From positions 1 to 7,022 of IMG/VR virus record IMGVR_UViG_3300033056_000002: a DNA stretch of 7,022 nucleotides; one strand, 5' to 3'. The DNA is from a virus. Both the position numbers and the translations under genes were made by a program. The notes beneath the pieces are model-generated. The model saw only the letters and a program-made list of their open reading frames with translations, was not told where the DNA came from and made no database searches. Positions 111 through 668 of the stretch are shown piece by piece (within the stretch, counting starts at the first letter, position 1; each line of letters opens with the position of its first letter).

Positions 111-240
111 TGGTACCATTTTCGCGGATCTCCGATCGCACCAGGTCGAGCAAATGGTACCAATTGCTAGGAATGCCCCTAATGGTTTGGTACCATTTCC
201 CTCCTCGAGGAACGAACCTGGTTGAAAGGAAAGGTACCAA
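111..240. promoter_or_regulatory. Array of four palindromic (T)GGTACCA operator-like sites, helically phased, upstream of the 242-499 CDS
   Basis: TGGTACCA occurs at 111-118, 155-162 and 188-195, and AGGTACCA at 232-239. Flanks are A/T-rich and approximate AAATGGTACCATTT. Centre-to-centre spacings are 44, 33 and 44 bp, all multiples of 11. By eye I found no other GGTACCA in the genome. Confidence 0.6.
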
Positions 241-241
241 A

Positions 242-499
242 ATGCTTATCAAATTCGATGTGACCACCGAGGAAGGCGACCGTCTCAAGATGCAGTACGG
301 CCAGAAGGTTGCCAGTAAGGCATTCAGAATGGCCGCTTTCGATGCCTTCGACCTGTACCACAAGAATCAGGAGCTGCACGAAGTCATCGACAGCCAGCGA
401 ACCGAGATTCGCCGGCTCCGCCACATCATCGAGCAGGCCCGCGCCTCGGCTGCCCAGCTACTCGAAAAGACTGCGCAGGGAGATTTGATCGATGGTTAA
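242..499 (+). CDS. 85-aa hypothetical protein; possible ribbon-helix-helix DNA-binding N-terminus plus C-terminal coiled coil
   Basis: This is an internal ATG of ORF 164-499, preceded by AGGAAAGG 7 nt upstream. The N-terminus LIKFDVTTEEGDRLKMQYGQKVASKAFRMAAFDAF fits a beta-alpha-alpha (RHH) pattern. The C-terminus QELHEVIDSQRTEIRRLRHIIEQARASAAQLLEK looks like a heptad coiled coil. The function is inferred only. Confidence 0.55.
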   Translation: MLIKFDVTTEEGDRLKMQYGQKVASKAFRMAAFDAFDLYHKNQELHEVIDSQRTEIRRLRHIIEQARASAAQLLEKTAQGDLIDG

Positions 500-668
500 G
501 CCCACTGTCCAAGCTTGTAGCTATTGCGGCTTTCTCGGCGATGACGATGAGGTTTTCACTACCGGCGATCCTGTTGACCCTTACATTTGCATCGACTGCA
601 TTGAGAAGGCAGAAGAACGCCGCTCTCTCGATCTAGCTGAAGCTTTTCATCGCACACGCCTTCGGTGA
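492..668 (+). CDS. 58-aa stand-alone ClpX-type C4 zinc-finger protein (not in the ORF track)
   Basis: My translation is MVKPTVQACSYCGFLGDDDEVFTTGDPVDPYICIDCIEKAEERRSLDLAEAFHRTRLR. The motif CSYCG-x19-YICIDCI parallels the E. coli ClpX N-terminal zinc-binding domain, CSFCG-x17-YICDECV. GGGAGA lies 9 nt upstream. The start overlaps the upstream stop in ATGGTTAA, suggesting translational coupling. Confidence 0.65.
   Translation: MVKPTVQACSYCGFLGDDDEVFTTGDPVDPYICIDCIEKAEERRSLDLAEAFHRTRLR

Follow-up and report, generated by a model that had tools for sequence, protein, structure and literature searches.

What does a small virus do with a run of palindromes in front of two overlapping, very short genes? 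The question is raised by positions 111–668 of the stretch analysed here, positions 1–7,022 of IMG/VR virus record IMGVR_UViG_3300033056_000002 (7,022 nt, the window), which represents an entire inovirus genome, circular and about 6967 nt long, since the 55 nt at its start recur at the end. A preliminary description of this DNA had read the segment as palindromic operators followed by a ribbon-helix-helix (RHH)/coiled-coil protein of 85 amino acids (aa) and a free-standing ClpX-type zinc finger of 58 aa, possibly a switch for lysogeny or host takeover. Comparison with related phages suggests that the operators and the 85-aa protein, a member of family phrog_8031, form a module common to many of these phages, and that the zinc-finger gene is interchangeable cargo. 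The best explanation as a whole, with a probability of roughly 0.6, is a DNA-binding autoregulator with phased operators and a hot spot for cargo genes.

Phased palindromes and a covarying protein family

The segment contains the following features.

111–118: operator site 1, TGGTACCA, left end of unit 1, conserved in relatives
155–162: operator site 2, TGGTACCA, at the right end of unit 1 and spaced 44 nt from site 1
188–195: operator site 3, TGGTACCA, left end of unit 2
232–239: operator site 4, AGGTACCA, right end of unit 2, overlapping the Shine-Dalgarno (SD) region and ending 2 nt before the ATG
112–238: whole array, two 50-bp units (112–161 and 189–238), each GGTACC-N38-GGTACC with a CCWGG-containing interior
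242–499, + strand: gene of the 85-aa protein, predicted to bind DNA, with MLIKFD as its N-terminal strand, then the turn and helix GQKVASKAF and a coiled coil at the C-terminus
477–499, + strand: cargo docking site, in which the codons Q-G-D-L-I-D-G-stop supply a plausible SD sequence AGGGAG (477–482) and the next ATG
492–668, + strand: gene of a 58-aa C4 zinc finger with a C-terminal helix, apparently an optional, horizontally exchanged cargo gene

The hexamer GGTACC is found four times in the window against 1.07 expected, always within 112–238, and the chance of four random sites falling within 127 nt is estimated at ~2e-5. These are the four palindromic sites that had been placed before the 85-aa gene, and they include every GGTACC of the window. 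Their start-to-start spacing is 44, 33 and 44 nt, and sites 2 and 3 together form a 12-nt perfect inverted repeat.

The same arrangement recurs in relatives. Two 50-bp units, each a palindrome-N36-palindrome, precede the family gene in nearly all loci, and the two-unit array is kept at 35–43% protein identity, as seen in phages 17897, NEU2023 and blackswan219-6. Aligned without gaps, 66 distinct units have left sites tTGGTACCATTT, right sites aaatGGTACCaAa and an interior usually containing CCWGG. The DNA pattern GGTACCATTT-N34-GGTACC alone, when searched against IMG/VR, retrieved 61 contigs, and the family is encoded beside the match in 54 of them. One low-GC element is common to three of the pattern matches (L062, L089 and L103). 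In L103, a phage that replicates by an unrelated Rep_1 protein, this element adjoins an 89-aa protein of the same design, MLVKINND...VGTSSGAALQVIL plus a coiled coil, which is divergent and family-like (MLVKI...GTSSGAA).

Spacings between neighbouring sites in 72 distinct arrays fall at 22–24, 32–35, 42–46, 54–55, 67–68, 76–78 and 110–111 nt. The 44-nt spacing alone accounts for 125 occurrences; without this class, a period of 11.0 bp gives a resultant length of 0.87. The spacings are multiples of ~11 bp, and the sites are therefore on one face of the duplex. There are 4–7 sites per array in the loci examined, and in nearly all arrays the core of the last site (GGTACC) starts 7–24 nt before the ATG. 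In one relative, L124, a terminator follows zot, and the interval between sites 2 and 3 holds a TTGACA-17-TATGAT promoter (11/12 matches) whose -10 element falls inside site 3.

Two details of the array were observed in addition. The CCWGG motif, often as aCCTGGTcGA, is present in nearly all 50-bp units ~12–14 nt before the right-hand palindrome (140–146 and 216–222 in the window), and may serve as a weak third site or to bend the DNA. In L013 (205–460) and L008 (5247–5462) a 72-aa open reading frame (ORF; MVLKFTDDVTTFHRIDVDG...) is located between the two units, its start codon sitting in a site-like AAATGGTACT; the downstream unit of L013 has decayed to GGTACT. The position of this ORF is a second cargo slot, inside the array.

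The palindrome itself is not constant. It differs between classes of the 85-aa protein family, as follows.

K4 class, N-terminus xL[IVL]K...: palindrome TGGTACCA, spacing 44, 22–34, 44 nt, in 61 of 62 distinct contexts
T4/R6 class, M[LM]LTIRD: palindrome TGCTAGCA, spacing 44, 24, 44 nt, in 24 of 24
H2/I4/R6 class, MHLIVRD: palindrome TGATATCA, spacing 43/44, 24, 44 nt, in 3 of 3
Q4/N6 class, MIVQINV: palindrome TCATATGA, spacing 44, 32, 44 nt, in L124 and L125 (one distinct context)
MLVNLRD (L159): mixed TGNTANCA half-sites, one locus

Four protein classes are thereby matched to four palindromes of the form TNNTANNA, and the two-unit architecture is common to the four classes. A change of palindrome goes along with changes at N-terminal residues 2, 4 and 6, of which residue 4 is different in each class. 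In the family alignments, hydrophobic residues always occupy positions 3 and 5, and positions 2, 4 and 6 are class-specific. In Arc, MetJ and CopG the RHH beta-ribbon shows its side chains to the major groove in such an alternation. There is strong indirect evidence that the N-terminal strand of the 85-aa protein reads the operators, as it does in RHH proteins.

Two other candidate readers of the array were considered and rejected. The family of the replication protein varies within one palindrome class (Rep_1 in L103, Phage_CRI in the window), and the same applies to the divergent repressor, which is HTH_3 in phage 17897 (L007) and phrog_5642 in the window. The cooperative binding of the 85-aa protein to phased palindromes, proposed in the preliminary description, gains support from the presence of the array in nearly all loci, from the pattern retrieval (54/61), from the ~11-bp multiples and the covariation of the palindrome with residues 2, 4 and 6, and from the long C-terminal helix, predicted with a local distance difference test score (pLDDT) >90.

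The 85-aa ORF, with GGAAAGG 7 nt upstream of its ATG, is a real gene, since it has many homologues. It matches phrog_8031 (E = 3.9e-14), a family of unknown function. A single-sequence search gave 19 homologue clusters and a profile search 176, all of them annotated as 'hypothetical' and essentially none with a Pfam domain. The homologues are mostly found on ~7-kb contigs or in Pseudomonas, Stutzerimonas and Colwellia genomes, and the family is core to a clade of XerCD-type Pseudomonas/Stutzerimonas inoviruses. Residues M1, L2, K4, G20, V23-A24-S25 and A27 and the C-terminal A-R-x-S-A-A-x-L-L...Q-G-D-L are invariant or nearly so among the closer homologues (alignments A1 and A2; A1 was also used for the profile scan of genome contigs). 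G20 is invariant in both alignments, and V23-A24-S25 in A2 and nearly so in A1. In the broad alignment A5, M1 and A27 alone are invariant, with L2, K4 and the C-terminal alanines near-invariant.

Longer versions of the protein, of 111 aa from TTG 164 and of 105 aa from ATG 182, were rejected as coding, the extension being operator DNA in frame. The 105-aa extension, MVWYHFPPRGTNLVERKGTK, is carried by many database proteins; its WY corresponds to TGGTAC and its GTK to GGTACCAAA. It is out of frame in phages 17897 (L007) and NEU2023 (L009). Its conservation is therefore at the DNA level, and ATG 242 is the true start. A subset of the family (P0014, P0015, P0018 and P0027; L057, L100, L075 and L117) has a C-terminal extension of 40–50 aa that ends in a conserved ESMDHFLARLNRQGR.

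The cargo slot behind the 85-aa gene

The 58-aa ORF (ORF58) starts at ATG 492–494 inside ATGGTTAA, overlapping the TAA (497–499) of the 85-aa ORF, and AGGGAG is found 9 nt upstream. The overlap and the SD sequence from which translational coupling of the two genes had been described are present, as is every other feature of the preliminary description, at its stated coordinates. Between relatives the ratio of nonsynonymous to synonymous differences (pN/pS) of ORF58 is 0.1–0.4, and it is therefore a real gene under purifying selection.

Its presence is variable. We surveyed 109 distinct family loci with downstream sequence, counting adjacent ORFs of at least 30 aa. A gene like ORF58 was found in 6 of them and no adjacent ORF in 78, and the rest carry about 17 other, unrelated micro-ORFs. 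The two genes had been read as a pair that may form a switch, with a lack of co-occurrence elsewhere named as grounds for refutation. The pair does recur elsewhere, as a minority option, and the slot is otherwise empty or taken by unrelated genes; a fixed pair or switch is not supported, although the named refutation applies in a weak sense only. Most of the alternative cargo ORFs start in the same -8 overlap (ATGGnTRA) with an SD sequence of the AGGGAG type. A transmembrane-like segment is predicted in 14 of 18 cargo types, these being single-pass peptides of 31–85 aa; the four remaining types are soluble, namely ORF58, a Cys-rich protein of 63 aa and two further proteins (71 and 54 aa). The 63-aa protein (C6, C21, C38-x2-C41), encoded at 1327–1518 in L012 and 3251–3442 in L017, is perhaps another zinc-binding micro-protein.

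Relatives with 85-aa proteins that are 89–95% identical have different cargo or none, and homology with the cargo-less relatives picks up exactly at position 669 of the window. Furthermore, the synonymous divergence (pS) of ORF58 is 0.05 vs 0.52 for the neighbouring gene between the window and L026, and 0.31 vs 0.63 between the window and L002. ORF58 has thus diverged much less than the gene beside it, which points to a recent cassette exchange.

Proposed working of the module and alternative readings

We infer that 111–668 is a small accessory operon in a Stutzerimonas/Pseudomonas inovirus of the CTX (XerCD-integrating) type and that it works as follows. The 85-aa protein would be a sequence-specific DNA-binding protein, probably built like P22 Mnt from an RHH N-domain with a coiled coil after it. 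Its dimers would bind directly to the 8-bp palindrome TGGTACCA and read it through strand residues 2, 4 and 6, Lys4 being invariant in the class. The four sites would lie on one duplex face as two pairs spaced 44 bp apart, with coiled coils probably bridging the dimers of a pair. Occupancy of the sites would most likely repress the protein's own operon, because the last site overlaps the ribosome-binding region and site 3 of a relative holds a -10 element. Cargo genes would dock by their -8 overlap on the conserved last codons of the 85-aa gene and be expressed under its control. The 58-aa gene would lie outside the core machine, as one of many exchangeable micro-protein genes.

By inspection of the alignments, an RHH-like pattern is present: a strand LIKFDV, a helix, the turn G20-Q-K-V-A-S and a second helix. 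The turn reads TG-x-x-T-[AG]-S-K-A in the broad family (A5) and TGKGTGSQAF in class 2 (A6). AlphaFold2 (AF2) predicts for the monomer a helix over residues 40–75, with a pLDDT of 95–97 over 40–70 and above 90 up to 75. A long C-terminal helix fit for a coiled coil, as in Mnt-type proteins, is thus predicted, and coiled-coil families alone match the protein; a PDB profile search with the 85-aa family returned coiled coils only, and Pfam likewise coiled-coil noise. None of the RHH families matched when relatives and N-terminal fragments were scanned, and the sole hint of the fold is a weak one, FitA-like_RHH at E = 0.037 for the class-2 N-domain. Of the 'RHH/coiled-coil protein' in the preliminary description, the long helix has held up in prediction and the RHH fold is not established by the profiles. 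We consider an RHH N-domain likely but unproven.

Several observations weigh against the autoregulator. No RHH profile in Pfam (E up to 10) or NCBIfam matched the window protein in the search that the preliminary description had called for. Alignment by hhalign to five RHH sequences, those of Arc, Mnt, CopG, omega and ParG, gave probabilities <1%. The AF2 monomer shows a coil over residues 1–8 followed by one long helix, with a pLDDT of only 62–76 over residues 1–30. The covariation could in principle reflect linkage to another factor, the gene and the array being adjacent and co-inherited. A consensus scan detected no sigma-70-like promoter in the window array, nor in L002, and autorepression is inferred here from relatives and from the position of the sites. 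A regulator that controls only itself also leaves the core status of the module in the clade unexplained. Lastly, the single locus L159 has non-palindromic hybrid sites at 270–405 (TGATAGCA, TGCTACCA, TGGTAGCA and TGCTATCA), of which sites 1 and 4 and sites 2 and 3 are exact inverted repeats of each other. This dyad of the whole array would fit a hairpin or a whole-array dyad model too. L159 may be an intermediate in specificity switching.

The surroundings of the array bear on the alternatives, and the other features of the genome are as follows.

1–55 and 6968–7022: terminal repeat, identical over 55 nt, the record being cut inside the attP hairpin
1–104, + strand: forked attP-like hairpin with dif-like XerC/XerD arms, predicted by DNA folding
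1322–2638: gII-type replication protein, PF05144 (Phage_CRI), E = 4e-48
5272–6699: long ORF spanning a Zot-like assembly gene, as indicated by a megablast match with the ZOT-like gene in phage 17897 and by synteny with relatives

Bases 1–110 are predicted to fold as DNA into a forked structure of -34.5 kcal/mol (z = -5.8). In this fold TCGCATAAT pairs with ATTATGCGA and TTATGTT with AACATAA, the 5' dif-like arms being TTCGCATAAT...TTATGTT and the 3' arms AACATAA...ATTATGCGA. The module does therefore follow an attP-like hairpin, as had been noted. We take a forked hairpin with XerC/XerD-like arms to be the CTXphi-type XerCD attP design. Two inverted dif-like half-sites in a forked (+) single-stranded DNA hairpin, together with the lack of an integrase, make 1–104 a likely attP of the CTX type. 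The window's ORF list leaves no integrase-sized ORF unaccounted for, Pfam having been run on a subset of the ORFs. Tandem prophages are found among the relatives L001–L003. In L110, two phages are located in tandem on one contig, their regulators (351–659 and 7141–7662) being of the GCTAGC and GGTACC classes; this is as expected if the palindrome classes permit co-residence at dif.

The closest genome match, Stutzerimonas chloritidismutans AW-1, encodes the 85-aa protein with 93% identity. The integrase-less 'group 4–7' Pf phages of Pseudomonas aeruginosa are more distant relatives and have so far been published as gene maps only (PMC10675462).

Other parts of the genome were also inspected. 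A 69-aa ORF on the - strand (1063–1272), divergent from gII, matches phrog_5642 (E = 8e-27). Its GC content is 42% vs 54.5% for the genome, its N-terminus TNLRLTADEQDALRKKA looks RHH-like, and it is probably an RstR-like repressor of the replication gene. An HTH_3 repressor occupies its position in phage 17897 and L123. The region between the cargo slot and this gene (669–1062) is non-coding with a GC content of 62%, begins with a segment kept across relatives (CCTCGACCTCGCC...GATTAGTCGCC), and is one place where the replication origins or the packaging signal may lie. Within the structural gene block, a 43-aa zinc-ribbon ORF (CDECG...CSFC) is encoded at 3283–3414 on the + strand, with weak zinc-ribbon matches.

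The alternative that survives best, possible if somewhat doubtful, is that the 85-aa protein and its array serve mainly as a cis-acting nucleoprotein complex with an architectural role and not as a simple autoregulator. Such a complex could be a site at which a single protein maintains or partitions the replicative form (compare ParR-parC, omega and pSK1 Par), or accessory sequences steering XerCD recombination at the neighbouring attP, and the specificity classes would then be incompatibility or identity groups. This would account for a module that is core to the clade though its sites are confined to its own gene. It would also suit the 4–7 sites at ~11-bp phasing, since the arrays of ParR and omega resemble such phased multi-site arrays. 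The operator array begins 7 nt past the 3' arm of the hairpin in the window, relative L001 is arranged alike, and in 27 of 44 distinct contexts the array starts 4–12 nt after the TTATGCGA arm (ATTATGCGA, XerC-type). The accessory sequences of cer and psi are on this same side. Phages of different classes in tandem (L110) and concerted specificity switches, which have occurred several times, would suit an identity determinant as well. However, no partition NTPase is encoded, the array does not adjoin a dif-like arm in 15–17 of the 44 contexts, and the 72-aa ORF splits the units in L008 and L013.

A broader version of this idea would join it to the zinc finger. The phased TGNTANCA arrays and the 85-aa family would form a single-protein identity complex, centromere-like or Xer-accessory, located beside the XerC arm of attP and governing integration or the maintenance of the replicative form. 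At least four classes would be incompatibility groups among phages stacked in tandem at dif, and the 58-aa protein would genuinely mimic the ClpX N-domain, competing for adaptors or substrates of ClpXP. We regard this combination as improbable.

The dedicated two-component switch of the preliminary description, in which an RHH protein works with a free-standing ClpX N-domain as a ClpXP decoy or modulator or as a co-regulator, in lysogeny or host takeover, is also an unlikely account. It depends on the nature of the 58-aa protein, whose resemblance to ClpX was assessed at several levels. The motif CSYCG...YICIDCI is present, and Cys 9, 12, 33 and 36, forming two CxxC knuckles that align with those of ClpX, are invariant in 7 of 7 members. 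PF06689 (zf-C4_ClpX) is the top Pfam match for all seven, with a best E of 0.0079; the window protein itself scores 13.8 bits (E = 0.054), below the gathering score of 27 bits, and the significant match anticipated for it was not obtained. In a PDB sequence profile search, ClpX (6sfw_O, E = 0.15) was aligned over the whole finger and ranked after mitoribosomal bL32m. BLASTP against the N-terminus of E. coli ClpX gave 31% identity over 49 residues. The AF2 model (pLDDT 82) shows a zinc knuckle pair followed by a helix over 34–56. With this model Foldseek placed the ClpX zinc-binding domain 2ds5_A third in the PDB (E = 1.0, target-length-normalised template modelling score 0.67, root-mean-square deviation 2.1 Å, 43 columns); no PDB entry reached E <0.1, and unrelated treble-clef fingers of the ZAD, FYVE and RING types rank alongside and fit equally well. 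Matches of the model in BFVD are unnamed small phage zinc fingers only.

By sequence the 58-aa protein is an orphan. A word-indexed search of 5.8 billion proteins with the 58-aa sequence returned 2 clusters, and an exhaustive phmmer search of 1.84 billion representatives one true relative and spurious repeats in giant proteins, with no ClpX at E up to 0.001. No match was obtained among GenBank phages and only noise in PHROGs and NCBIfam, and literature searches for stand-alone ClpX-type fingers in phages returned nothing relevant. The ORF stands alone in every genome that carries it and is not the N-terminus of an AAA+ unfoldase. The invariant cysteines, the ClpX matches and the coupling of the gene to the regulator thus speak for the switch, but every match is below threshold and the pair is present in only 6 of 109 loci. 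The 58-aa protein seems best described as a stand-alone C4 treble-clef finger, nearer to the ClpX N-domain than to any other named family, with membership not demonstrated. Both 'ClpX-type' and 'RHH' in the preliminary description are readings of the sequence, as distinct from what is observed in it.

Also very unlikely is a role of the palindromes as single-stranded (+) DNA hairpins, such as those of a minus-strand origin or a packaging signal. Bases 100–250 do fold better than shuffled sequences (z = -3.3), site 2 pairing with 3 and site 1 with 4, and the inverted repeats of sites 2 and 3 in the window and of sites 1–4 and 2–3 in L159 agree with such a structure. Four copies of a palindrome fold well trivially, though, so this z-score does not discriminate, and a hairpin does not need each site to be an 8-bp palindrome itself. 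Furthermore, spacing quantised at ~11 bp is a property of duplex DNA, the interiors of the 66 aligned units are without compensatory pairing, the two units can be 290 nt apart with a gene between them, and the palindrome tracks the N-terminal residues of a protein.

A type II toxin-antitoxin system, with an RHH antitoxin followed by a small toxin and autoregulated at palindromes, resembles the locus in gene order, overlap and upstream palindromes, but the variability of the partner appears to refute it for the most part: in 103 of 109 loci the second gene is missing or has been replaced, the first is kept without any partner, and the 58-aa protein matches no toxin family.

Significance and comparison with known systems

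If the autoregulator with its cargo slot is accepted, the integrase-less Pseudomonas/Stutzerimonas phages, so far represented by gene maps (PMC10675462), gain a defined and conserved regulatory module with a readable specificity code. In this code residues 2, 4 and 6 track the variable bases of a T-N-N-T-A-N-N-A palindrome, which could be used to sort phages into specificity groups. They also gain a micro-protein hot spot that operates by translational coupling and holds mostly single-pass membrane peptides and a few soluble proteins, including the zinc finger. Manipulation of the host, as in superinfection exclusion, is common among small phage proteins, and the slot is therefore a convenient place to mine for host-targeting peptides. 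The idea of a ClpX mimic would be interesting if true; it is at present drawn from sub-threshold similarity alone.

In its integration site the phage resembles CTXphi, with the forked hairpin at 1–104, tandem prophage copies in relatives and no integrase in the window. No counterpart of either the 85-aa protein or the palindrome array is known in CTXphi. The cargo genes are like 'morons' in being optional micro-proteins at a fixed hot spot of an inovirus genome. An example is PfsE of Pf4, a small membrane protein through which type IV pili and superinfection are blocked. In contrast to PfsE, the occupant in the window is a soluble zinc finger, and the hot spot is set by translational coupling to the last codons of the regulator. 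The 58-aa protein shares with the ClpX N-domain (PF06689, PDB 2DS5/1OVX) the C4 arrangement CxxC...CxxC, a second knuckle Y-I-C-x-x-C-[IV] and a following helix. It differs in having 20 residues between the knuckles vs 18 in ClpX, in lacking an AAA+ module and in matching below every significance threshold.

An omega-like RHH protein has been reported at the genome end of the Pseudomonas filamentous phage PMBT54 (PMC10534721). A tblastn search of the phage collection with the 85-aa protein gave three records, PMBT54 not among them.

For the 85-aa protein itself two kinds of system offer a comparison. P22 Mnt, like Arc, is a phage RHH repressor, and Mnt carries a C-terminal coiled-coil tetramerisation domain. 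Mnt and the 85-aa protein are of similar length (82 vs 85 aa) and share the order of strand, helix, G-x-S-type turn, helix and long C-terminal helix, as far as this is predicted here, and probably also palindromic operator half-sites on one DNA face beside their own gene. On the other hand, no sequence or profile similarity is detectable between them, Mnt has one operator of ~20 bp whereas four 8-bp palindromes in two pairs 44 bp apart are present here, and the 85-aa gene is located in an inovirus beside a Xer attP. Omega (pSM19035), ParR (R1/pSK41) and ParG are likewise small proteins with several short repeats upstream of their own operon, spaced on the ~11-bp helical repeat. They differ in that the window is without a partner ATPase (ParA or ParM), and in that its palindromes are 2–4 turns apart whereas theirs are contiguous heptads or 11-mers. 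The architecture of the 85-aa protein, with its DNA-reading head and C-terminal coiled coil, would come nearest to P22 Mnt, and omega, ParR and ParG would offer the nearest parallel for the coating of phased repeats. The module is an uncharacterised example of a familiar type: a repressor-like protein, its cognate phased operators and a hot spot for micro-protein cargo.

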